Below, one piece after another: positions 7,063 to 26,939 of a stretch of 58,620 nt of DNA. Position numbers and translations under genes: made by a program. The stretch lies in assembly GCA_012799825.1 (NCBI GenBank), contig JAAZKK010000082.1:1-58620 (forward strand), given 5' to 3'. Below the pieces are notes generated by a model. The model saw nothing but the letters and a program-made list of their open reading frames with translations. It made no database searches and was not told the origin of the DNA. Origin of the DNA: Clostridiaceae bacterium (GTDB lineage Bacteria; Bacillota; Clostridia; Saccharofermentanales; DTU023). Every line of letters begins with the position of its first letter. Within the stretch, counting starts at the first letter, position 1.

Positions 7063-8238
7063 TTACGGCTTCATTTGCTCGCGAAGCGCAATTGCGCCAT
7101 CGTTGTCGGTGATCGCCGAGGGCACTTTGACTTCGCCGTTGCGAACCGCTTCTGCAGCGGCCAAAACTTTGTCTTGGACATCCTGAGGCGTATACTTCTT
7201 GAAGTTCTTGTCGCTTACAAAACCGACACCGTTTTCAAGTAGACCGAGGTTTACTTCTTTCCCCCAGTGGGTGCGGCCTGAATCCCATTCGTCGATCAGC
7301 CAGATCAGAGAGTCACCGACGTTTTTGAGACCCGATGTCAGCGTTATGGCCGCTTGGTTTTCAGGAAGTGTCAGCTCTTGGTCTGAGTCGACACCGAAGA
7401 ACCAAGCTTTGCCTGATTCAAGCGCCGCTTCTGCGCCGCCGTTGCCGGAAAGACCCGCAACACCCCAGATGATGTCACACTTATTGTCATTGATCATACT
7501 GAGTGCCATTTCTTTGGCCGTAGCGGTATCGGCATAGCTGTTGACGTAGCGCGCGTCGACACGAACCTCGGGATCGGTGTCTTTGACGCCGGTCAGGAAG
7601 CCGTAGAGGAAGTCATTGATGACGGGACTATCCATGCCGCCAATGAATCCGACCGTCTTTTCAGGATTGATTTTATCCATGCCTTCCACGGTCGTCAAAG
7701 CCGCCGCGTAAACGCCCAAGATGTAACCCATGTCATTTTGACGATAGCTGATGTTGACGACGTTGGCGTTCTCGCCCACGTAGGTGGTGTCATCGTAAAT
7801 CGCAAACTTTTGGTCAGGATAAGCGGTTGCAGTGTCTTTGAGGTAATCAGGCATCTGATACGTACCGCAGACGACAAGATCGTATTCACCGCTTTCTGCA
7901 ACTTCGTTTAATGTCTCTTGCCATCTCGGATGATCGGATTCGGCTGCGCCCATTTCCTCATATTTGAGTTCAATGCGGCCATCGGCTGCCAACTTCTCAA
8001 GTCCTGCTTGAGCAGAGTCAAAGAAGGACTTATCGCCGAGGTTTCCGTTGATCAGGTGAATGACTTTATATACCTTCTTCCCCGGGTCTTCCGATCCTGC
8101 CGGATCTTCGGAACCTTCGGGAGTCGAAGCTTCAGTCTTCTTACTCTCAGGCACTTCCGGATCCGGAGTTGACGGAGCACAGGCGACAACTGACATCACC
8201 ATCAACAACGCAATCAGTAATGCAAATACTTTTTTCAT
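7063..8238 (-). CDS. BMP-family ABC substrate-binding lipoprotein (nucleoside-binding, Med/PnrA/NupN-like)
   Basis: Lipoprotein signal MKKVFALLIALLMVMSVVAC, a low-complexity linker, then a BMP-like body. It is the first gene of the transporter operon. Confidence 0.85.
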   Translation of the reverse strand: MKKVFALLIALLMVMSVVACAPSTPDPEVPESKKTEASTPEGSEDPAGSEDPGKKVYKVIHLINGNLGDKSFFDSAQAGLEKLAADGRIELKYEEMGAAESDHPRWQETLNEVAESGEYDLVVCGTYQMPDYLKDTATAYPDQKFAIYDDTTYVGENANVVNISYRQNDMGYILGVYAAALTTVEGMDKINPEKTVGFIGGMDSPVINDFLYGFLTGVKDTDPEVRVDARYVNSYADTATAKEMALSMINDNKCDIIWGVAGLSGNGGAEAALESGKAWFFGVDSDQELTLPENQAAITLTSGLKNVGDSLIWLIDEWDSGRTHWGKEVNLGLLENGVGFVSDKNFKKYTPQDVQDKVLAAAEAVRNGEVKVPSAITDNDGAIALREQMKP

Positions 8239-8357
8239 ATTTTCTTCTCCTTGTTCTTTTGATGTGTCACAATTTGCTCATATCACCAAATCCTTTGATC
8301 GTAATAAAACATCAGGGAATGGCCCGATTTATGAACAAAATGACCAATCGCAGAGAT

Positions 8358-8386
8358 ATTATACACATATTTCACCACATAATCAA
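8358..8386 (-). promoter_or_regulatory. putative sigma-A promoter of the nucleoside operon
   Basis: On the minus strand: TTGATT, 17 nt, TATAAT. It lies about 120 nt upstream of the BMP lipoprotein start. Confidence 0.45.
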
Positions 8387-8538
8387 CGAAAACAGGGCTC
8401 CTGTGAGCGTAGTACCCGCTCAGTCCACTTAAGCCCAATCACTCAACTCGATCTCTCAGTCACTCAGTTATAAGCCGGTCACTCACCATCGATCAATTAG
8501 GTGCTCAGCTGATCAAGCTATGTGTAAAGATGCGAGTA

Positions 8539-8607
8539 TTTGAGGAAAAAGTGTGTATAATCAGGCTAATGAGAAAGAGCAGAGAGTATAAGAGCTATTT
8601 CTCGAGT
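8539..8607 (+). promoter_or_regulatory. second copy of the CRISPR leader segment (contains TATAAT at 8556-8561)
   Basis: 63 of 69 positions are identical, counted by eye with no gaps, to 14406-14474 immediately upstream of the array. Confidence 0.7.
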
Positions 8608-8636
8608 CTTTAACCTTACCTATGAGGAATTGATAA
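8608..8636 (+). repeat. solitary CRISPR repeat unit (no spacer array attached)
   Basis: CTTTAACCTTACCTATGAGGAATTGATAA matches the array repeat consensus at 28 of 29 positions. Only the last base differs. Confidence 0.85.
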
Positions 8637-8743
8637 ACCTATGATTTGAATGTATTATCTCTTGAGTATCAGAGCAATTGAAGCCTGCCGACATTGCCTC
8701 AACATAACTCCAACGAATCAGGGCATATGAGGAGCATGAAGAA

Positions 8744-10192
8744 ATGTACAATTTTGAACATTATCTGACTAGACGATTTATCTCAAATAGTTCTTATTAT
8801 CTAAGAAAAGATGAGCTCCAGTTTTACCCTTTTTTAAACCAAAAGTTCTTAAAAGCAATCTTGGATGAAAATCCAATTGAAATTAGAGAGTCAGTTCAAG
8901 AACAACTCCCTTGTCCTCTTACAGTTATTCTTGGTCAGCTTTTACTTTATTCAGACATGATTCATAAAGTGATTGACAAACTACAACACATGATCCGTGA
9001 TGTCGATCAAGGCAACATTTCGGTTGCCGACCTTGTGTACGATTTCTTTTCATTTGTCATCAATACATTTGAGAATCCGGACAATCCGATATTCGCATCT
9101 TTTATTGACTATAATTGGTTATGTGCAAGCTTTCGGCCAGAACGTTCCACGGATGAATTTTCCGAGTTAGCTGAGAATATTGAATATTTTTCATCGTTTG
9201 CAGGTCATAAGCGTTTCATTGATGAAATAACAAGCAACTTAACGGACACAGAATTAATCGCCTATTCAAAAGAATTAATATATGCGAATGGTCACGAACT
9301 CGGAGAAAATAACAATATACAGCAATACTTGTATCACATCGCAGACGTGTTCTTAATAAATTATGAAACGTCACCGGATGAAATGACGACCGACGATTTT
9401 ATTATCTCAGCTCAAAGCGCAATAAGTATACTCAACAGCATTCTGGACAACAAACTTAGCTTGAAATACAAGAACATTGATCATGTGACCTTTATTAAAA
9501 AAATGAGGCCTATTCTTCGAAAAGATTACTCTTTTATTTCGGAGATCGTTTCCATCAACGGATTTCTTGATTCCGGGCTTTCAGAAAGAAGTAAAGCCAT
9601 CTTTTTAGCTGACTTAAAAGCCGAATATATCATTCGATTTTGGAAATCATTAAAAGAAAGATCCGAGGAAATATATGACAAATACATTTTCTTTAAACAC
9701 TTTAATGGATCTGTCGAATTGTCGAATTATATTCGCAAACACAATTTCCCTCATATTAATAAGAATGCTGCTAATTTCTACAAGAAAATTAATAACTCGG
9801 ATTTAGTTTCTTGGTCAGATCTTGCTGCTTATCTATGGCTAGCAGAAAATGATATCAATATGGAGTTGCTGCTTTATCAATGCATGGATGAAATTAATAG
9901 TGAAGTTATCGTAAATAGACGACATATTTTCCCCTACTATCTAGAATTGGCGGATCAACGAATCATCGTGTTGGAAGAGTACTCAGGAGCTAAATTAGGT
10001 TATGATAACCCGTATGCCAAGAAGTCGACATACAGAAATTTAGAGTATCAATTCTGGGATGCCGAGACACGCTGTTTCGTGAAAAGAAAAGTCCAATTCC
10101 ACCGCGAACCTATAACAGGTGAATGTTACGAGACGTATGAGCCTAGAGCAATCTATGTCCCCTACATACCCCATCTCCCTTACCTGTTGTAG
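8744..10192 (+). CDS. hypothetical protein (482 aa), no recognisable domain
   Basis: Long ORF in an AT-rich island. GAGGAG Shine-Dalgarno sequence lies 9 nt before the ATG. It is on the same strand as, and 108 nt downstream of, the solitary leader-repeat unit. Confidence 0.75.
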   Translation: MYNFEHYLTRRFISNSSYYLRKDELQFYPFLNQKFLKAILDENPIEIRESVQEQLPCPLTVILGQLLLYSDMIHKVIDKLQHMIRDVDQGNISVADLVYDFFSFVINTFENPDNPIFASFIDYNWLCASFRPERSTDEFSELAENIEYFSSFAGHKRFIDEITSNLTDTELIAYSKELIYANGHELGENNNIQQYLYHIADVFLINYETSPDEMTTDDFIISAQSAISILNSILDNKLSLKYKNIDHVTFIKKMRPILRKDYSFISEIVSINGFLDSGLSERSKAIFLADLKAEYIIRFWKSLKERSEEIYDKYIFFKHFNGSVELSNYIRKHNFPHINKNAANFYKKINNSDLVSWSDLAAYLWLAENDINMELLLYQCMDEINSEVIVNRRHIFPYYLELADQRIIVLEEYSGAKLGYDNPYAKKSTYRNLEYQFWDAETRCFVKRKVQFHREPITGECYETYEPRAIYVPYIPHLPYLL

Positions 10193-10217
10193 CTGATCTC
10201 ATTCCTCATCGAGAACG

Positions 10218-10685
10218 CTATTCTGCCAACCATATTATTAAAATCCCAACTATCCAAAAAAAACAGTACTCTATGAGTTTTTTAGAATCATTTCGGCAAT
10301 CATTAGTCACTTTCATTTTTTTTATGAAACCTAGTTCTAAGATCTCATAAAGAACTACTCCGTACAACATACGCAGTTGCCGTCGATGATATGGGTCTGT
10401 AGCCGGTTTAGAATCTTTCAAGTGACGAGCGGCTTCGAAACACATCTCTTTGATTATTTCATCACTCCATCCGCTTTCTTCACGGATTTGACGGAGAAAT
10501 GCAAGCATTTCAGATCGATGATGATAGTAACCATTTTCCATGTCGTTCGGCAAATAAATTATTAGCGAGAGAAGATCAAAACGATGAATCATCTCTTCGA
10601 TGATAAGACTTCTTTGGAGCTCATCATAATTTGATTCGTCGCTGTCAGTACCTTCACCGTTGTGTTTCGATATTCTCATGCCCAT
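10218..10685 (-). CDS. hypothetical small protein (155 aa) with a single C-terminal transmembrane helix
   Basis: AGGTGA Shine-Dalgarno sequence 6 nt before the ATG. Acidic N-terminus and a C-terminal hydrophobic stretch, YCFFWIVGILIIWLA. Convergent with the 482-aa gene across a 25-nt gap. Confidence 0.6.
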   Translation of the reverse strand: MGMRISKHNGEGTDSDESNYDELQRSLIIEEMIHRFDLLSLIIYLPNDMENGYYHHRSEMLAFLRQIREESGWSDEIIKEMCFEAARHLKDSKPATDPYHRRQLRMLYGVVLYEILELGFIKKMKVTNDCRNDSKKLIEYCFFWIVGILIIWLAE

Positions 10686-10952
10686 TGTTTTTCACCTGAC
10701 ACTGTTTTCTGATTAACAATAGTACGATTGATTTAGTATAAACAGTTTCTTCCATTCGAAAATAATCACTTCTTTATCAGATGTCTGCTCTATGTTTTTA
10801 CACATTCCTCGGGTATTATCAGGCGACTCTATGGGTCTTATTTCTTTAGATCTAAGATAGTACCACTCCGCTTTGTCAGGCTAGACATGTTCATAGTAAA
10901 AGTCTCCTGGTTTTGTGACGTGCTTTCACATCTTTGAAATATCCGAGTTAGT

Positions 10953-12743
10953 CTAATTCTCAAATTTGCTTAAAAGAAAATTGGTAATGCCCAGATACGC
11001 TTCATACTTCTTGGGATTTGCTTGATAGAGACGCTCGTAAATCTCCTTCGATTGCAGATGACACGCTTTCGCTTTATTAAACTGGCCTTGGTCATCATAA
11101 AAAAGCCCTAAAATATCGCAAGTCGCGGCAAGATCCTCTCCAAAGCGATCGGGATTCTGCCGAAACAATTGCTCTATTATTTTCTTTGATTGGAGATAAT
11201 ACTGTTCCGCTATTTCAAGCTGACCTTGATCATCATATAAAACACCAAGATTGCCATAAATTGTCGCAAGATCCTCTTCATGGAGATCGGGATTCAACTG
11301 CGATAAACGCTCTCTAATTTCCATCGCTTGAAGAAAGCATCTTATCGATTCCTCAAACTGAGTTTGCTTATAGTAATGTGTCCCCAAATTCTTGCAAGAT
11401 AAAGCCAGATCTCCCTCATAAAAACCATGGCCATTCTTAGCGAGATATTCTCTGATCTCCCTTGATTTCAGATAAGATTTCTCCGCTTTGTCCGCTAGAC
11501 CTTGTTTACAGTATAGAGTTCCAAGAAGATCGAATAAGGTCGCGCGGTCCTTTTGTAGAGGATTTTCTAAATCGTATGTTTTCTCAAGCTTTTCTGCTAT
11601 TTGAATCGATTTTTGAACTTTGTTATGTTTCAGAAGGTATACTGCATATTCATAGACGGCATCAAACTCGATACTTTCCCTCAAGGCTACCTTGGTAATC
11701 TTTTCGTAGCAATCAGTAATGTCATCAAAGCAAGCAATGTAGCCCACCATGGTTCCTAGGATATCTATCCTCGTCCGGTATTCGCGGATGTAACGTGACG
11801 ATAGTGTCTTAATCTCTTCTTCCTCACCTTGCTTTCGTTTTTCGTAATCATCGTCTATTTCTTTCGGATCCAGAATACGGAGACAGCCATAGCAGTCTCC
11901 GCGCTCGAATAACGAATACGCCTTGCTCTGTCGTACCGTCACATCACCACTTAGTATTCCTCGACTCATTGACAAGGTCACCTCAAAGATCAGCTTTTCG
12001 AGCTCATTAATTTCATCGATCAAAGACTGCCGATCCACAGCAAGTTGTTCATACATCTCTTCTGCCTGAACATCCAACTTGCCCACAGTATACTTCGCTT
12101 TTTCGGCATAGTACTTTAGATTGATCTTCTCTAATTTCATTTTCAGGCTTTGTAGCGGAGCATGATTGAAAAATTCGTCAACTTTATTTAACGACAGATC
12201 ATCTTCTCCAATTTCAATTCCCTCAATCCAAATCTTCCCGGATGTCACAATAAGGTTGATATGATCGCCACTTAATATTTTCAGTGCCTGTAAAATTCGC
12301 AACTTCACCGTCTCGATATCACTAAAACGATCGCTATAGTATTCATACTTTTTTTCCAAAAGTTTGCGAAATTCCAAAGTACTTTGATTAAACCCTTCTT
12401 CGCCGGTCGTTTCTTTAAAAGAGATATAGACCTTGGGCTTTCCACACTTTCGGAAGGCTCCGATCGCCTTCTCACTCCCCTCGACTGCGAATTGTCCTGT
12501 GCGCGTAAAGAAGATAAATAAACTCAGGTCACTGCTACGTAGTTGTTCATTGTAACCATCTTGTTTCCGAGACAGATAGACCGCATCGTCAGAGGCATCA
12601 CAGATAAGAAGTTCAAACTCGATTCTGCACCGATCCTTAAGTAAAGCACTCATGCGTCTAATAAAAAGTTCGATCGTTTTTCGTTCACTCTGAAAATCAA
12701 TAAGCGAAGGGCCAAGGAAGATTGTGATGCTTTTTTTGACCAT
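10953..12743 (-). CDS. TIR-like/DUF4062-like N-terminal domain + coiled coil + TPR-repeat protein (596 aa)
   Basis: The N-terminus (ITIFLGPSLIDFQSERK ... SDLSLFIFFTRTGQFAVEGSEKAIGAFRKCGKPKVYISFKE) follows the beta-alpha pattern of DUF4062/TIR-like domains. The C-terminal third has at least 4 TPR-like units (LGTLYCKQGLADKAEKSY, LGTHYYKQTQFEESIRCF, LGVLYDDQGQLEIAEQYY, LGLFYDDQGQFNKAKACH). Confidence 0.65.
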   Translation of the reverse strand: MVKKSITIFLGPSLIDFQSERKTIELFIRRMSALLKDRCRIEFELLICDASDDAVYLSRKQDGYNEQLRSSDLSLFIFFTRTGQFAVEGSEKAIGAFRKCGKPKVYISFKETTGEEGFNQSTLEFRKLLEKKYEYYSDRFSDIETVKLRILQALKILSGDHINLIVTSGKIWIEGIEIGEDDLSLNKVDEFFNHAPLQSLKMKLEKINLKYYAEKAKYTVGKLDVQAEEMYEQLAVDRQSLIDEINELEKLIFEVTLSMSRGILSGDVTVRQSKAYSLFERGDCYGCLRILDPKEIDDDYEKRKQGEEEEIKTLSSRYIREYRTRIDILGTMVGYIACFDDITDCYEKITKVALRESIEFDAVYEYAVYLLKHNKVQKSIQIAEKLEKTYDLENPLQKDRATLFDLLGTLYCKQGLADKAEKSYLKSREIREYLAKNGHGFYEGDLALSCKNLGTHYYKQTQFEESIRCFLQAMEIRERLSQLNPDLHEEDLATIYGNLGVLYDDQGQLEIAEQYYLQSKKIIEQLFRQNPDRFGEDLAATCDILGLFYDDQGQFNKAKACHLQSKEIYERLYQANPKKYEAYLGITNFLLSKFEN

Positions 12744-12840
12744 ATTTATAGACCCACTCTACAGAACTTTTGAAATAGTAAACCCCATTTCTAAAATTTA
12801 TTATACCGTCTTTATTCCAGTATTTCTGTCGTAATCTTTT

Positions 12841-12943
12841 CCGCTCTTTCCTGCTAACCTCGTGCTTGGCAAGTTTTCACGCGTCGACACAAACCATATG
12901 CTTTTGTTGTGACCGCTTTCCTGCTAACCTCGTTCTTTGCAAG
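12841..12943. repeat. two direct copies of a ~31-nt element, 70-nt period, in the promoter region of the TIR-like/TPR gene
   Basis: CCGCTCTTTCCTGCTAACCTCGTGCTTGGCAAG (12841-12873) versus CCGCTTTCCTGCTAACCTCGTTCTTTGCAAG (12913-12943). The 17-nt core TTTCCTGCTAACCTCGT is identical in both. Confidence 0.55.
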
Positions 12944-13027
12944 ATACTCCTATATGGCAACAAGCTACGGCCGGATTCTTTTCATAGCACTCCTCGTAGC
13001 TTTTAGGAAGATGCGCAACGAATTCTT

Positions 13028-13945
13028 CTATTCATCCTCCATTCCTGTCATTCTCAAACGATATTCACTTAACCTAGTGTCATTCTCTTGCCATTCTCGA
13101 TATTTCATCCACAGAGGATGGTTGCTGAAGATCTCGTAATCGCTTATTTCTCCAACATCTTCAGGTTTACGATTTCCCAAATGATGCGAATAGCGAGACA
13201 AGCTAAAATAGAAATGCATTTCCTTCCCGCGAACATACAGAGCAATGTCACGGTCGAAGGAATCGTCCATGTATCCCCTTAAAAAGCCTTTGCACTGGAA
13301 CTTCTTATCACTCCCACTAGTGTCTTCCACAGAAAGTATTACCAGTTCCGCCTCGGATCCATTTTCAAGTAAGAGCTGCAGCCGTTTACCAAGCTCATTT
13401 TCAAAATTCGGCAAGATGCTCCCTTGTGCTATCAGGCTCGTTACACAAACATCGGAAGAAAAAGCATAGGTGTGTAATACACGTAACCCAGGAAATGTGA
13501 TTCTTTCCGGAAGAGGATAAGGCTTCAATAATTCTATCGGATAATAGATGCCATCCATCCACGAAAGCACCTCCTGACGCACCTTTGCCGACGTCCCCTT
13601 CCCGTCTGAGAGAGTAATAAGCCAAGGTGTTTCATGTTTTTCCACAAGCGGCACGCCCTCATGGAAATGTTTCCAGTCTTTACAAAACGCCAAATACACC
13701 TCTTCCGATTGAAATTCGAATAAGACCCGTCCATAAGGACTACGACACTGCTTTGCATCCAACCCCAAGCTTTGAAGCTTCTCTCGCAGATCAATGGCAC
13801 TCTCAAGTAAACATTCAATATATTTTGAGCTATTCAATAGCCCCATGGAATATCGCATGTTCAAATGCTGGCACTTAGCGATTTCTTCATTGCGATATTC
13901 TTTCAGTCCGTTCAAGTACAGCTCCTCTGATGTCTGTGCATTCAT
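13028..13945 (-). CDS. hypothetical protein (305 aa), no recognisable domain
   Basis: GAAGGAG Shine-Dalgarno sequence 9 nt before the ATG. Transcribed divergently from the CRISPR leader, with which it shares a 460-bp control region. Confidence 0.65.
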   Translation of the reverse strand: MNAQTSEELYLNGLKEYRNEEIAKCQHLNMRYSMGLLNSSKYIECLLESAIDLREKLQSLGLDAKQCRSPYGRVLFEFQSEEVYLAFCKDWKHFHEGVPLVEKHETPWLITLSDGKGTSAKVRQEVLSWMDGIYYPIELLKPYPLPERITFPGLRVLHTYAFSSDVCVTSLIAQGSILPNFENELGKRLQLLLENGSEAELVILSVEDTSGSDKKFQCKGFLRGYMDDSFDRDIALYVRGKEMHFYFSLSRYSHHLGNRKPEDVGEISDYEIFSNHPLWMKYREWQENDTRLSEYRLRMTGMEDE

Positions 13946-14194
13946 TCTGTAACGCTCCTTCGATTATGCAAACTTTAAACGATTGCGGACAATATTGCTA
14001 TTCGCTCTCCCATGATGTTAATCAAGTCTATCACCCGCAAAAAATTGGAATTGTCACATAAACATTATCACTGGGTTGTCGAGTAAAATAAAGCTTATCC
14101 TTACATAGTTTTGGTTCAATCATCTTTTGGCACGGCACTGTCAAGGATCTTTCGCAGATTGGGCTTGTAATGGTTTATTCCAATATAATCGACT

Positions 14195-14408
14195 AAAAAG
14201 TCCGTCAATCGATCTAGCTTGATATTTCAGCCTTTGCGTGACTTTTTCTGTAGCAAAATGAGGAGAAAATGGCCTAAAAGTTGCCATTTTCGATCAAAAA
14301 GTCCGTCGATCTCCTGAACAAGAACTCACAAAATGGACGAAGTGGAAATAAGCTTGATATATCAAGGAAAATAAGTCATTGATGAAAAAACGATTGACGG
14401 AGTTTTTT
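14195..14408. repeat. three copies of a 17-nt motif (two direct, one inverted) in the leader-proximal intergenic region
   Basis: AAAAAGTCCGTCAATCG at 14195-14211. AAAAAGTCCGTC(-)GATCT at 14296-14312. Reverse complement AAAAACTCCGTCAATCG at 14391-14407, abutting the conserved leader. Confidence 0.45.
14353..14366. promoter_or_regulatory. perfect 14-bp palindrome, candidate operator
   Basis: CTTGATATATCAAG is its own reverse complement. It lies about 55 nt upstream of the leader TATAAT. The half-site AGCTTGAT recurs at 14216 and, inverted, near 8510 upstream of the other leader copy. Confidence 0.35.
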
Positions 14409-14474
14409 AAGGAAAAAGTGTGTATAATGAGGATAATGAGAAAGAGCAGAGAGTATAAGGGCCTTTTCTCGAGT
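14406..14474 (+). promoter_or_regulatory. CRISPR leader (conserved segment, TATAAT at 14423-14428)
   Basis: AT-rich sequence directly upstream of repeat 1 and duplicated at 8539-8607. The degenerate repeats lie at the far end of the array, which supports + strand transcription. Confidence 0.7.
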
Positions 14475-15075
14475 CTTTAACCTTACCTATGAGGAATTGA
14501 TACCTCTCTAGGCAAGTAGACAATAAAATCGCGACCTACTTTAACCTTACCTATGAGGAATTGATACTATCAGGCTTCAGAAGATGTTTTTTCCTGTCAA
14601 ACCCTTTAACCTTACCTATGAGGAATTGATACATTTCGTGCCGTCTCTCTGCATCTTTATAATTTTCTTTAACCTTACCTATGAGGAATTGATACAGTTT
14701 GCCGCAAGCTGATTTAATTTCGATGGGCTTCTTTAACCTTACCTATGAGGAATTGATACGTTAAGGCGACTAAGGTTATAGTGCCGAGGATTTTCTTTAA
14801 CCTTACCTATGAGGAATTGATACGCTTGTACAAAGATAGTTCCAAAACTTTCTTTATCTTTAACCTTACCTATGAGGAATTGATACCTTAAAGCGTTCCC
14901 ATTTAAAGCGACTAGCCTTGCTTTAACCTTATCTATGAGGAATTGATACACGTCAACGGTCAGCGACTTATCTGCGATGCTCCTTTAACCTTACCTATGA
15001 GGAATTGATACGCGAGCCTCTCCAAGAAAAAGATGATCGTAAAGGTCTTTAACCTTACCTATGAGGAATTGATAT
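14475..15075 (+). CRISPR. CRISPR array: 10 repeats of 29 nt (30 nt if a usually-T preceding base is included) and 9 unique spacers of 33-36 nt
   Basis: Repeat CTTTAACCTTACCTATGAGGAATTGATAC starts at 14475, 14539, 14604, 14667, 14731, 14795, 14858, 14921, 14983 and 15047. Repeat 8 has one C>T change at 14932. The last repeat ends in T instead of C. The 3' end ATTGATAC resembles the ATTGAAAC-type 8-nt crRNA handle. Confidence 0.95.
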
Positions 15076-15449
15076 GTTATATTCAGAGATGTTAAGATCT
15101 CATGATCTTTTGAGATCACTTAGTAGAACCTAATCTGAGTAATTGCGAAGCAAATCAAAAGTCATTATCTTGTCGTTACAAATGATTGAGGCTTTTATGA
15201 TTTGAATATACTGTTGAAGATGAGGATATTACCTTTTTTCTTTTCCTTTAATTTTTGCTTGCTCGACAACTCGATAAAGAATGATGAAGCCATGTCTGTT
15301 TAAAATGATGCGATACATATCGTTCCTTGGAATGTTCTGAGAAAAATGAAAAAGATATCGGGAAATTAGACAAAGGCAAACAGGGGTAATAAGTTTCGCG
15401 GTTCATCCAGATGACTTTGGCACTGAGCAAAACACCTATTGCGATAAAC

Positions 15450-16826
15450 TCATGGGAAAAGTCGACGAGCGACCTCGATTTTAGAGGCCATCTGCAGCGC
15501 CTCAGGCGCAACTAAATCAATTAAACGGAGGGTTGTCCTGTTTGGAAGCGTCATCAAAAGTTGATGATCTTGTACACATACAGCAAGCGCGTAATCCTCG
15601 CGACCATCGACGCGATAAAAGAGAAGATCGCCTTCGCGAAACACTGACAGATCAGGGATCCCGTCGATCTTCGGAATCGTCAACGACTCTCCGGCATTTA
15701 AAAGCCCCTCTGTCGTTCGAGTAAGATCCATGCCGATCAAGCGCGATGCCACGAAAATAGCGCCTTCGGGTGACATTCCCTGCATGGTAGCGCCAGATGG
15801 AACGTACGGTGTTCGAAAAAACCGACGGACAGTTGAGGCAAAGACTGTCTGCGGGTCATCTTCAGTCATCAAAGGTTCCGATACAGGCCCTGTGAGCACA
15901 CCGCTTCCGCTGATCCATCCTGAACCGCCGCCGGGCATAATGACGCGAAAAAGATCGCCGCGCCGATAATCTGCAAAAAAGATGCTGCCCATTGGGGCTT
16001 CCGTAAGAAGTGTCCCCTGATACGCATGGCTCATGATGCGTTTACAGGTATCCACGACAAGCACACGGGCAATGGCGCCCGCAGGGTTCACCGAACGCGT
16101 TCCGGCTGCTAACAGGTCACGCCTGACGTAACCTTCAACGCCGTCTTCAAGACGAATTTTAAACCACAGCGCTCCTTGTGTTTCCAGAATAACGCACGGC
16201 TCATTAAACAGAGCGTCGGCCACGCGAGGCGCCTTCAGATCGGGAGATGCGAGTATAGGAGCAAATGACGCCGCGATTACCGCGTCAGCGGGATGATCAG
16301 GCAGCTCCCCTGATGAAGAAGATAACGTCTCGACAGGCGGCGGACTCTCAGGGACACGACCGACCAGACCGGGCACCACAATAAAGAGACCTGCCATCAT
16401 CAGGAAAAAGACGATAATTGCCAACACCCAAGGCGGCCATTTCGATTTTTTAGCGTCGAGATACACGGGGCGACGCGCTCTTTTGCTGTCGCCGTCGCTT
16501 GGCTCGCCGGACTCATGGATAGGCTCGCGCGCGATAGAGATCCTTTCAAGGTCTTTAACACGTTTATTTTTTTTAGTTGAAGACTCGTGAGATCTTGAGA
16601 GCTTTTTGAGGTCTTCGACGCGTTCATTTTTTTCGGTTAAAGGATCGCGAGATTTTGAAATATTTTCGAGGTTATCGCCGCATTGATTTCCTACGGTTGA
16701 AGATTCATGAATGTTAAAGATCTTATTTAGATCTTCGCCATTTTGATTTTCTGCGGTTGAAGGCTCGAAAGTTTTAGAGATATTATCGTCGTTTTGCCGT
16801 TTTTCAGATCGATTGTCCTCGGTCAT
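15450..16826 (-). CDS. membrane-anchored protein with an N-terminal 20-aa tandem repeat region, one TM helix and a C-terminal SH3-like + degenerate NlpC/P60-like domain
   Basis: TM helix WPPWVLAIIVFFLMMAGLFIVVPGLV. The C-terminus resembles NlpC/P60 (GDLLFY motif), but the position of the catalytic DCSG reads MSPEG. Confidence 0.6.
   Translation of the reverse strand: MTEDNRSEKRQNDDNISKTFEPSTAENQNGEDLNKIFNIHESSTVGNQCGDNLENISKSRDPLTEKNERVEDLKKLSRSHESSTKKNKRVKDLERISIAREPIHESGEPSDGDSKRARRPVYLDAKKSKWPPWVLAIIVFFLMMAGLFIVVPGLVGRVPESPPPVETLSSSSGELPDHPADAVIAASFAPILASPDLKAPRVADALFNEPCVILETQGALWFKIRLEDGVEGYVRRDLLAAGTRSVNPAGAIARVLVVDTCKRIMSHAYQGTLLTEAPMGSIFFADYRRGDLFRVIMPGGGSGWISGSGVLTGPVSEPLMTEDDPQTVFASTVRRFFRTPYVPSGATMQGMSPEGAIFVASRLIGMDLTRTTEGLLNAGESLTIPKIDGIPDLSVFREGDLLFYRVDGREDYALAVCVQDHQLLMTLPNRTTLRLIDLVAPEALQMASKIEVARRLFP
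16497..16796 (-). repeat. in-frame imperfect tandem repeat, about 5 x 60 nt (20 aa)
   Basis: Protein periodicity: ..DLNKIFNIHESSTVGNQCG / DNLENISKSRDPLTEKNERV / EDLKKLSRSHESSTKKNKRV / KDLERISIAREPIHESGEPS. Conserved D-L and S-T positions recur exactly 20 residues apart. Confidence 0.6.
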
Positions 16827-24995: not shown

Positions 24996-26939
24996 TCAGT
25001 TATTCGCGATTGTCGCAAAATCACGCGCCTTCAGCGAGGCACCGCCGACCAGACCGCCGTCGATATGCGGCTGGGCAAAAAGCTCCGCCGCATTGTCGGC
25101 ATTGACTGAACCGCCGTAAAGAATCTTGACATTTTCAGCTTCTTCAGGACTATAAAGAGAAGACAGAACATCATAAATCAGCGCGCACATCTCTTCGGCC
25201 TGTTCAGGTGTTGCCGTGTTTCCTGTTCCTATTGCCCAGATAGGCTCATAAGCAACCGTCACTTGGCAAAGTTTTGATGCCTTGACGCCCTCAAAGGCTT
25301 TCTTAATTTGGGATGTAACAATGTCTTCGGTCTTTCCTGCCAAACGTTCTTCTTCAGTTTCTCCGCAACAGACAATGGGACGGATTCCCCAATGCAATGC
25401 CGATAAGAGCTTCTCATTCACGAACTCATCGGATTCGTGGAAGTATCCGCGGCGCTCAGAGTGCCCGATAATGACATAAGGCACGTGCATCATGGCTAAG
25501 GTACGCATGGAAATCTCGCCAGTATACGCGCCGGATTCCTTCGGATGGCCATTTTGAGCGGCTACGTGAATGACAGTGCCTTCACATGCCTTCAATGCCG
25601 CATCGAGAGCCGTGAAAGGAACAGCGGCAATAACGCGCGCTTCCGCGTTATCCAAAAGCGGAATCAGCTGATGGATGAGCTCCACTGCGTCTTGCGGCGT
25701 CTCGCGGTTCATCTTCCAGTTGCCCGCCGCCACCTTCATGCGCGGATCACGGTCGAGCAAACAGTCGATACCGGGCAGCACCTTACCTTCGAGGAACTCA
25801 AGAGATGCGCCGCCGCCGGTAGATACGTGACTCATCTTTGACGCGAGACCGAACTGCTCAACGGCAGCCGCAGAATCTCCGCCTCCGATGATGGTCACCG
25901 CATCGGCCTCAGACATGGCGTCAGCCAACGCGCGTGTGCCCTTGGCAAAATTGTCAAATTCAAATACGCCGACCGGGCCGTTCCAGATTACGGTGCCGGA
26001 TTGGCGAATAATGTCGCAGAAAAGACGTGTTGTCTCAGGACCTATGTCAAGTCCCATCATGTTATCGGGGATCATATTCGCCGGCACAATGACGAAATTG
26101 GCGTCCTTGTCAAAACGGTCAGCAACTACAATATCGACGGGAAGAACGAGTTTAACACCGCGTTCATCGGCCTCTTGCATGAGCTCTTTGGCAAGTTCGA
26201 TCTTGTCGGGCTCACAAAGCGACGTGCCGACCGAAAATCCGCGTGCCGCGATAAATGTGTAGGACATGCCGCCACCGATGAGCAAATGATCTACCGACTT
26301 CAACAGATTGCGGATAACACCGATTTTGTCATATACCTTAGAGCCTCCAAGAATCGCCGTCATGGGCCGTTTCGGCTTGGCAAGCGCATTCCCCATCATG
26401 TTCAGTTCGCGACTGATCGTATAACCAGCTACTGCCGGCAAATAGGACGCTACGCCGGCAGTCGACGCATGCGCGCGATGCGCGGTGCCAAAGGCGTCAC
26501 TGACATAAAGATCGGCCATAGAAGCAAGTTTTTGAGAAAATAGCGGATGGTTTGCCGTCTCTTCCTTGTGAAAACGGACATTCTCCAAAAGCATAACGTC
26601 ACCGTCTTTTAAGGCGGCCGCTTTGTTTTGAGCATCCTCACCTATGACGTCCAGTGCCAAAATCACATCCTGTCCAAGTAGAGAGGCGAGACGTTGCGCG
26701 ACAGGCTTCAGCGAGAACTCCATATCAAAGCCTTTAGGGCGTCCAAGATGGGTCACAATGATGACGCGAGCACCCCTCTCAACGAGTGATTTGATGGTCG
26801 GCAACGCAGCGCGGATACGGCGATCATCTGTAATTTCATTCGTCTCTTTGTCCAACGGAACATTAAATTCAGTGCGCAAAAGGATGCGTTTTCCTTTGAC
26901 ATCAATGTCGTCGATTGTCTTCTTGTCGTATTGAATCAC
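24996..26939 (-). CDS. pgk/tpiA: fused phosphoglycerate kinase / triosephosphate isomerase (647 aa)
   Basis: The PGK body ends at ...STGGGASLEFLEGKVLPGIDCLL and runs without a stop into a TIM N-terminus, RMKVAAGNWKMN, with TIM motifs IIGHSERR and AYEPIWAIGTG. Confidence 0.9.
   Translation of the reverse strand: MIQYDKKTIDDIDVKGKRILLRTEFNVPLDKETNEITDDRRIRAALPTIKSLVERGARVIIVTHLGRPKGFDMEFSLKPVAQRLASLLGQDVILALDVIGEDAQNKAAALKDGDVMLLENVRFHKEETANHPLFSQKLASMADLYVSDAFGTAHRAHASTAGVASYLPAVAGYTISRELNMMGNALAKPKRPMTAILGGSKVYDKIGVIRNLLKSVDHLLIGGGMSYTFIAARGFSVGTSLCEPDKIELAKELMQEADERGVKLVLPVDIVVADRFDKDANFVIVPANMIPDNMMGLDIGPETTRLFCDIIRQSGTVIWNGPVGVFEFDNFAKGTRALADAMSEADAVTIIGGGDSAAAVEQFGLASKMSHVSTGGGASLEFLEGKVLPGIDCLLDRDPRMKVAAGNWKMNRETPQDAVELIHQLIPLLDNAEARVIAAVPFTALDAALKACEGTVIHVAAQNGHPKESGAYTGEISMRTLAMMHVPYVIIGHSERRGYFHESDEFVNEKLLSALHWGIRPIVCCGETEEERLAGKTEDIVTSQIKKAFEGVKASKLCQVTVAYEPIWAIGTGNTATPEQAEEMCALIYDVLSSLYSPEEAENVKILYGGSVNADNAAELFAQPHIDGGLVGGASLKARDFATIANN

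Follow-up and report, generated by a model that had tools for sequence, protein, structure and literature searches.

The window (the whole stretch of DNA analysed, 58,620 nucleotides) contains at positions 8539-8636 a solitary unit, made up of 69 nt of CRISPR leader and a single 29-nt repeat. This unit is probably, though far from certainly, what is left of a second array module in a type III-B-family locus after collapse and truncation; it would now be part of the promoter region of an orphan gene. The reading follows from the homology to a leader combined with the presence of a repeat, the lack of spacers, a terminal-type degeneration of the 3' end and the existence of sister arrays with the same leader. 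It also draws on the related loci, which often contain additional leader-plus-mini-array modules, lone repeats and partial duplications, and on a published survey in which mini-arrays near type III loci, having no conserved position and no targets, were judged likely degraded (Shmakov et al. 2023, 10.1101/2023.03.03.530964).

A leader copy with one repeat

The features of the solitary unit and of the intact array are as follows:

8539-8607, + strand: leader copy, promoter-proximal 69 nt only (6 differences compared to 14406-14474)
8556-8561, + strand: TATAAT, -10 box of the putative leader promoter, present in every full leader of the family
8608-8636, + strand: solitary CRISPR repeat CTTTAACCTTACCTATGAGGAATTGATAA, equal to the array consensus at 28 of 29 positions
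8629-8636, + strand: predicted 8-nt crRNA 5' tag ATTGATAA, from its likeness to the canonical tag and the family consensus ATTGA(A/T)AC
8655-8682, + strand: weak repeat-like stretch, possibly a decayed second repeat, from a gapped local alignment to the repeat
14176-14474, + strand: full leader of the intact array, from BLAST similarity to the related locus L013 and motifs common to other leaders
14475-15075, + strand: CRISPR array of 10 repeats of 29 nt (CTTTAACCTTACCTATGAGGAATTGATAC) and 9 spacers of 33-36 nt, terminal repeat ending in GATAT

The unit reproduces the leader-proximal end of the array, which lies 5.9 kb away, at 93-95% identity. Identity between 8539-8635 and 14406-14502 is 94%, BLAST reports 94.6% over 93 nt (E = 4e-37), and with the last repeat base counted there are 7 differences over the 98 nt of 8539-8636 and 14406-14503. 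These values confirm the initial annotation, which had described a duplicated leader with a TATAAT box and a near-perfect repeat. The similarity ends sharply at 8539 on the left and at the last repeat base on the right. The leader copy starts just past TTGACGGAG and keeps the -10 box; the distal ~230 nt of the leader, with the conserved AAAAAGTCCGTCAATCGAT and TTGACGGA motifs, are missing from it. The region upstream (8239-8538) is no more alike to the distal leader than shuffled sequence, and remote homology between the two was rejected because 116 of 300 shuffles score as well.

The single deviation of the solitary repeat from the array consensus concerns its final base, C to A. The same end (GATAA) is found in the terminal repeat of a mini-array at the related locus L007 and can be compared with the GATAT of the array's own terminal repeat. 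The solitary repeat folds as the same small 5-bp hairpin as the array repeats. Its 3' end, ATTGA(T/A)AC, resembles ATTGAAAC, which we take to be the canonical 8-nt tag of type I-B and III systems, and Cas6 would be predicted to cut before 8629. The repeat-like stretch at 8655-8682 begins only 18 nt past the solitary repeat; its score is reached by 83 of 1000 shuffles with the window repeat and by 34 of 1000 with the GTTT...GAAAC family variant (p about 0.03-0.08). The sequence next to the solitary repeat (at 8640) and the trailer of the array (at 15196) have a 12-mer in common, TATGATTTGAAT; with an E of about 1 in the window, it was set aside as chance.

The + strand is taken as the transcribed strand, since the leader is always on the left, the 3' end of the repeat is tag-like, degenerate repeats are found at the right end, and cas6 and cas1 are co-oriented in the relatives. 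Rfam gave no match at the gathering threshold. Its CRISPR-DR2 model matches 8610-8633 and 14475-15072 with 24-26 bits, short of the threshold of 37, and does so on the minus strand only, which we do not take as evidence of orientation. The repeat family of the window is not represented in Rfam.

Leaders of this family are ~300 nt long; in them, two AAAAAGTCCGTCAATCGAT-like motifs and an inverted TTGACGGACTTTTT precede the (G)TATAAT box. Positions 14176-14695 of the window, which comprise the leader and the first repeats, align to 1126-1642 of L013 at 85% over 529 nt. The leader also has the AAAAAGTCCGTC motifs and TTGACGGA in common with the leaders of L007 and of a related Oscillospiraceae contig. 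The motif sites in the window (14197-14215, 14288-14306 and 14394-14402) have counterparts at equal positions in the leaders of L013, L007 and the Oscillospiraceae contig. The two copies of AAAAAGTCCGTCAATCGAT with their inverted partner TTGACGGACTTTTT form a candidate protein-binding site that could serve integration or regulation; neither motif is present in the solitary copy. With regard to the spacers, spacer 2 of the window (14568-14603) and spacer 3 of L013 (1581-1613) both contain TTTTTTCCTGTCA; identical or related protospacers may have been the source at both loci.

Related loci and their layout

Relatives were sought with the repeat core in species-representative genomes and JGI metagenomes. 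In the Oscillospiraceae MAG contig (WQWL01000011.1) the repeat GTTTAACCTTACCTATGAGGAATTGAAAC is found with Cas10/Cmr2, Cmr3, several RAMP proteins, Cas6 and Cas1. L007 has the exact repeat of the window with Cas10, RAMPs, Cas6 and fragments of RT and Cas1, and in L013, again with the same repeat as the window, cas6 is followed by 2.5 repeats and then by a leader and its first repeats. Based on these cas genes beside the repeat, the family appears to be type III-B-like (Cmr), with Cas6 and (RT-)Cas1.

The Oscillospiraceae contig carries eight repeat units on one strand, four of which have the full ~300-nt leader:

3229: full leader, three repeats
5785: full leader, two repeats
10118: full leader, three repeats
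19518: full leader, seven repeats
770: no full leader, solitary repeat; the distal leader is kept and the promoter part is gone
7401: no full leader, solitary repeat
8370: no full leader, two repeats
17694: no full leader, two repeats

A co-directional gene follows six of the eight units, at these distances from the last repeat:

748 nt: ATPase (AAA_14/DUF4143)
109 nt: ATPase (AAA_14/DUF4143), second case
165 nt: nucleotidyltransferase
267 nt: SAVED-like fragment and cmr operon
51 nt: cas1
234 nt: HTH protein

At L007 a leader with two repeats is followed by cas6 59 nt on, and a leader with three repeats by the RT fragment 88 nt on; at another related locus (L018) the RT gene begins 29 nt past the last repeat. 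For the family in total, a co-directional gene comes after 10 of 13 units, in nine cases within 29-270 nt and in one at 748 nt; the 10 of 13 are only weakly significant (one-sided binomial about 0.05, the cases not being independent). Repeats without a leader also stand between co-directional genes, at 7401 and 17694/17759 of the Oscillospiraceae contig. The layout in the window, a repeat with an ORF 107 nt on, fits this habit of the family. Given the recurrent order of leader, repeats and co-directional gene, read-through from the solitary unit into the ORF is plausible. The layout supports read-through from arrays into following genes as a trait of the family; Cas6-dependent control is not thereby implied. 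This family-wide pattern of repeats before genes is the part that deserves attention.

Apart from this, the first 24 kb of the Oscillospiraceae contig (WQWL01000011.1 1-24000; L005+L004+L002) show an unusually fragmented array layout, in which the units are interspersed with AAA_14/DUF4143 ATPases, a nucleotidyltransferase, a HipA-like gene, TnpB and cmr/cas6/cas1.

The orphan gene and its putative promoter region

From the 3' end of the repeat onwards we find the following features:

8630-8658, + strand: alternative sigma-70-like promoter, TTGATA (8630-8635, the 3' end of the repeat), 17 nt, TATTAT (8653-8658), scanner score 10/12
8729-8734, + strand: Shine-Dalgarno-like GAGGAG, 9 nt before the ATG, read off the sequence
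8744-10192, + strand: 482-aa orphan ORF, 35.7% GC, ATG at 8744, no homologue and no family match

Among 5.8e9 proteins searched by word index, and among 1.84e9 representative proteins scanned in full with phmmer, the 482-aa protein matched only itself, and nothing was found in Pfam, NCBIfam or PADLOC. The orphan status assigned to the ORF in the initial annotation is therefore correct. From base composition, the probability that 482 codons stay open by chance at about 36% GC is estimated to be near 1e-15. A single-sequence AlphaFold run reached a pLDDT of 38, and the model is unusable.

The end of the repeat and the ATG are 107 nt apart, on the same strand. No terminator-like sites are present on the + strand across 8200-10800, the longest T run in 8637-8743 is 3, and the RNA of 8600-8748 folds less stably than shuffles (z = +1.66), which bears out the earlier statement that no terminator separates the repeat from the ORF. 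Because of this short distance and the absence of a terminator within it, the remnant would be part of the promoter region of the ORF.

Two signals are candidates for the start of transcription. The leaders of the window array, L013, the Oscillospiraceae contig and L007 all have (G)TATAAT 33-47 nt ahead of their first repeat, and in the solitary unit the box sits 46 nt upstream of the repeat. The solitary copy starts 17 nt before this box, its -35 position reads CGAGTA, and neither of the two leader copies in the window has a usable -35. The L007 leaders have a good promoter (TTGATT-17-TATAAT); compared to these, TTGACGG and TATAAT lie about 22 nt closer together in the leaders of the window and L013, which show no recognisable -35. 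The promoter scanner made no call at 8556-8561. The claim of a leader promoter is weak.

The scanner does find the hybrid promoter listed above, with a predicted start near 8665, downstream of the repeat. It is the sole 10/12 site on the + strand upstream of the ORF, and it uses the TTGATA of the repeat as its -35. Since similar repeat-based matches occur at 3 of the 10 array repeats and at one L007 terminal repeat, the hybrid promoter is plausible but not beyond chance. The region as a whole has 10 promoter-like matches against 9.8 expected from shuffles, and no other promoter was called in 8659-8743. Either predicted promoter would send transcription into the ORF; only the leader -10 would put the repeat in the mRNA.

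The initial annotation had proposed that a transcript from the leader carries the repeat into the 5' UTR of the ORF. The geometry of this proposal stands and agrees with the layout of the related loci, whereas its promoter is reduced to a -10 box that the scanner does not call and that competes with a start downstream. For the other possibility raised there, a separate start within 8637-8743, the scanner offers the one near 8665, yet not beyond chance.

The same annotation extended the proposal to regulation, with expression or processing of the ORF coupled to Cas6-type recognition of the repeat. Worked out further, Cas6, possibly together with loading of the tagged 5' end into Cmr, would process the repeat-bearing mRNA and tie the orphan gene to the state of the CRISPR-Cas system. 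We regard this coupling as unlikely, although several observations agree with it. The geometry is right, no terminator intervenes and the repeat is intact. In the family, repeats (leaderless ones included) stand 29-270 nt before cas6, RT, cas1, cmr operon, ATPase and nucleotidyltransferase genes, and the cas6 gene of L013 adjoins an 85%-identical leader with the same repeat. On the other hand, besides the reduced promoter, a start downstream of the repeat is predicted equally well, the window has no cas gene, the co-orientation is at a level of about 0.05 with non-independent cases, and a literature search found no natural precedent.

Less likely again is that the unit is inert debris, untranscribed, and that the ORF uses an unrelated promoter within 8637-8743. 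The poor promoter features of the truncated leader, the shuffle level of the promoter-like matches and the literature view of type III mini-arrays (10.1101/2023.03.03.530964) are in favour of this. However, the best-scoring site upstream of the ORF borrows its -35 from the repeat itself, and the stretch behind that site is without another called promoter.

Origin of the unit

According to the collapsed-module reading, which we prefer, the locus would at one time have contained a pair of leader-array modules, of the kind found in L007 and the Oscillospiraceae contig. Recombination between repeats would have collapsed the left module to one repeat with a terminal-type 3' base, and a second rearrangement would have removed all sequence beyond the 17 nt that precede the -10 box. 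Transcription into the ORF would then most likely start either near 8568 (leader -10), with the repeat in the 5' UTR, or near 8665 (hybrid promoter, with TTGATA of the repeat as -35), leaving the repeat untranscribed. With a start near 8568, and in a cell that produces Cas6, the mRNA would be cut ahead of 8629; this would be a by-product of ancestry and involve no dedicated regulatory circuit.

A three-way comparison gives an indication of age. Private changes number 5 in the solitary copy, 2 in the array leader and 4 in L013, which makes the solitary copy an old paralogue and no fresh duplicate. At positions 58-59 it has the L013 state. The -10 box and the repeat are intact despite a divergence comparable to that between two separate loci. 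Changes affect 4 of 69 leader positions against 1 of 29 repeat positions, a difference that is not significant. The intact -10 box and repeat could reflect selection, with gene conversion as the alternative. Nine further metagenome contigs, drawn from several studies, cover the unit without a single difference. As these are near-clonal copies (one of them shows one SNP over 522 nt), their identity is uninformative on constraint. Only such near-clonal copies of the locus were found.

Duplication and recombination of modules can be followed in the relatives. Past the second mini-array of L007, at 7450-7536 on the minus strand, lies a collapsed cas6 duplicate consisting of internal and 3' fragments, while the cas6 gene itself is at 8050-8751; moreover, the cas6 5' UTR recurs as the first 'spacer' of this second mini-array. 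We consider this evidence of a segmental duplication of a leader-repeat-cas6 module. L018 (10509-11304, oriented as the window) and L021 (8422-8650) stem from the same organism in other samples, and in both the distal leader of the window is joined to the proximal leader, spacers and RT gene of L013. The crossover in the leader lies between 14406 and 14431, and L021 has a second one inside a spacer, via 13 shared nt, giving a hybrid spacer. Unless these contigs are assembly chimeras, the crossovers in leader and spacer indicate that leader-array modules do recombine. We rejected the idea that a circular element bearing a solitary repeat unit had entered the array through one crossover, because the full leader would be expected upstream of the left copy and is found at the right copy.

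A wider interpretation is that the leader-repeat modules of type III-B/Cas6/RT-Cas1 systems are portable units, which would supply the next gene with a promoter and a Cas6 site in the 5' UTR and at the same time act as homology patches for cassette swaps. The genes served may be cas6, RT-cas1, the cmr operon, accessory ATPases or an orphan cargo gene, and the unit in the window would be a working example tying a non-cas cargo gene to crRNA biogenesis. We hold this to be more doubtful than the readings discussed so far. If the layout of the family does reflect processing of mRNAs by Cas6, this would be the natural equivalent of engineered Cas6/Csy4 mRNA control. CRISPR components would then regulate cargo genes in a type III system, a role that is not documented for this type. 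If the unit is a relic only, it would be a clear example of array decay and recombination, showing a leftover leader and repeat that become promoter material for an unrelated gene. For annotation it follows that such units are not to be labelled arrays or anti-CRISPR RNAs by default.

Comparison with known systems

The window unit belongs to a known class, the standalone repeats near type III arrays (10.1101/2023.03.03.530964). Like these, it has the repeat of a neighbouring array, lies outside yet near that array and has no detectable target; the type III context is likewise shared, although for the window unit it is known from relatives. Unlike these, it keeps 69 nt of duplicated leader with a -10 box and stands directly before a non-cas orphan gene, in a window without cas genes.

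With arrays that are co-transcribed with cas genes the unit shares the order of leader promoter, repeats and co-directional gene without a terminator. The array-then-cas layout is found in L007 (cas6, RT), L018 (RT) and the Oscillospiraceae contig (cas1, cmr). In the window, by contrast, the downstream gene is an orphan and the 'array' consists of one repeat behind a truncated leader. Surveys of CRISPR loci in E. coli have described remnants made of a leader and a single repeat, left at decayed CRISPR-Cas loci. The window unit would resemble these as a relic of array collapse with a leader fragment and one repeat, but differs in having an intact sister array 5.9 kb away.

One repeat is in principle enough for Cas1-Cas2 to integrate a spacer. 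The unit might accordingly be thought of as an empty but competent array, a leader-proximal integration site with one repeat that is able to take up spacers, and its 69 leader nt and repeat are indeed 93% conserved compared to the active-looking array end. We nevertheless find this very improbable: no spacer has been gained in any of ten contigs (the window and the nine others), the distal leader motifs conserved in the family are missing, and the last repeat base is mutated.

The unit is just as poor a candidate for a repeat-mimic RNA, whether as a Racr-like decoy of Cas6/Cas7 or as a crRNA-like regulator (CreR, CreA, crlRNA) that guides an effector to a partly matching target. Racrs, or solitary repeat units, are defined as phage and plasmid elements (Camara-Wilpert et al. 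2023, PMC10651486). A single repeat after a promoter-like element and not beside cas genes resembles this definition, and the marginal second repeat-like stretch at 8655-8682 would fit as well. However, Racrs reside on mobile elements and oppose the host system, whereas the window unit is chromosomal and has the leader of the host's own array, 5.9 kb away. No mobile-element context is present, there is no match in 50,697 phage records, and a scan of IMG/VR with the 22-nt repeat core gave no match; with an 18-nt core two matches were obtained, which were dismissed as chance as their flanks are unlike the repeat. The likeness to mobile-element solitary repeat units drawn in the initial annotation thus does not hold, for the locus is chromosomal, lacks mobility genes, is identical in nine other contigs and has no viral copies.

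CreA/CreTA, CreR, scaRNA and crlRNA are similar to the unit in that an ectopic repeat derives from the local array. They differ in having a spacer-like segment with partial complementarity to a promoter and in using DNA-binding effectors (types I, II and V). The family studied here is type III-B; the documented cases of regulatory mini-arrays involve effectors of types I, II and V, which bind DNA, and none involves type III (10.1101/2023.03.03.530964). A complement to the sequence that would serve as spacer (8637-8680) was sought within the window; the best antisense match is 11 nt, which is at chance level.

Genomic surroundings

The solitary unit and the array mark the borders of a region that differs from its flanks:

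8539-15075, no strand: low-GC island, 39% against 50% GC in the flanks, with the solitary unit as left border and the array as right border

The island spans 6.5 kb and has four genes, encoding proteins of 482 aa (+), 155 aa (-), 596 aa with TPR repeats (-) and 305 aa (-), none with cas homology. The 305-aa protein is an orphan as well. None of the island proteins is similar to genes of the related CRISPR loci, no integrase or transposase is present in the island, and the island has no similarity to the 50,697 phage records. Neither cas6 nor any other cas gene was found in the whole 58.6-kb window. Both flanks are of a housekeeping nature: on the left a Bmp-type ABC substrate-binding protein with its transporter, on the right an SH3 protein, AcpS, DnaI-like and DnaD-like proteins and PFOR.

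A number of minor observations were made in this part of the genome. The 596-aa protein (10953-12743, minus strand) has an N-terminal part of about 440 aa without assignment and TPR repeats at its C terminus. It has about 50 homologues at 23-53% identity, which are mostly longer (700-970 aa) and of which two distant ones carry PF13271; the one homologue whose context was checked (P0019) lies among housekeeping genes with no CRISPR nearby. Between the start of the Bmp gene and the solitary unit, at 8438-8515, there are three spaced copies of a TCACTCA(N2-4)CGATC-like sequence, which gave no match in Rfam. Four tandem 60-nt units of 60-70% identity are found at 16521-16760, inside the gene for the 458-aa SH3-domain protein, where they encode a repeated 20-aa motif near the N terminus. 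Finally, 24996-26939 (minus strand) is a single ORF of 647 aa that represents a fusion of phosphoglycerate kinase and triosephosphate isomerase.
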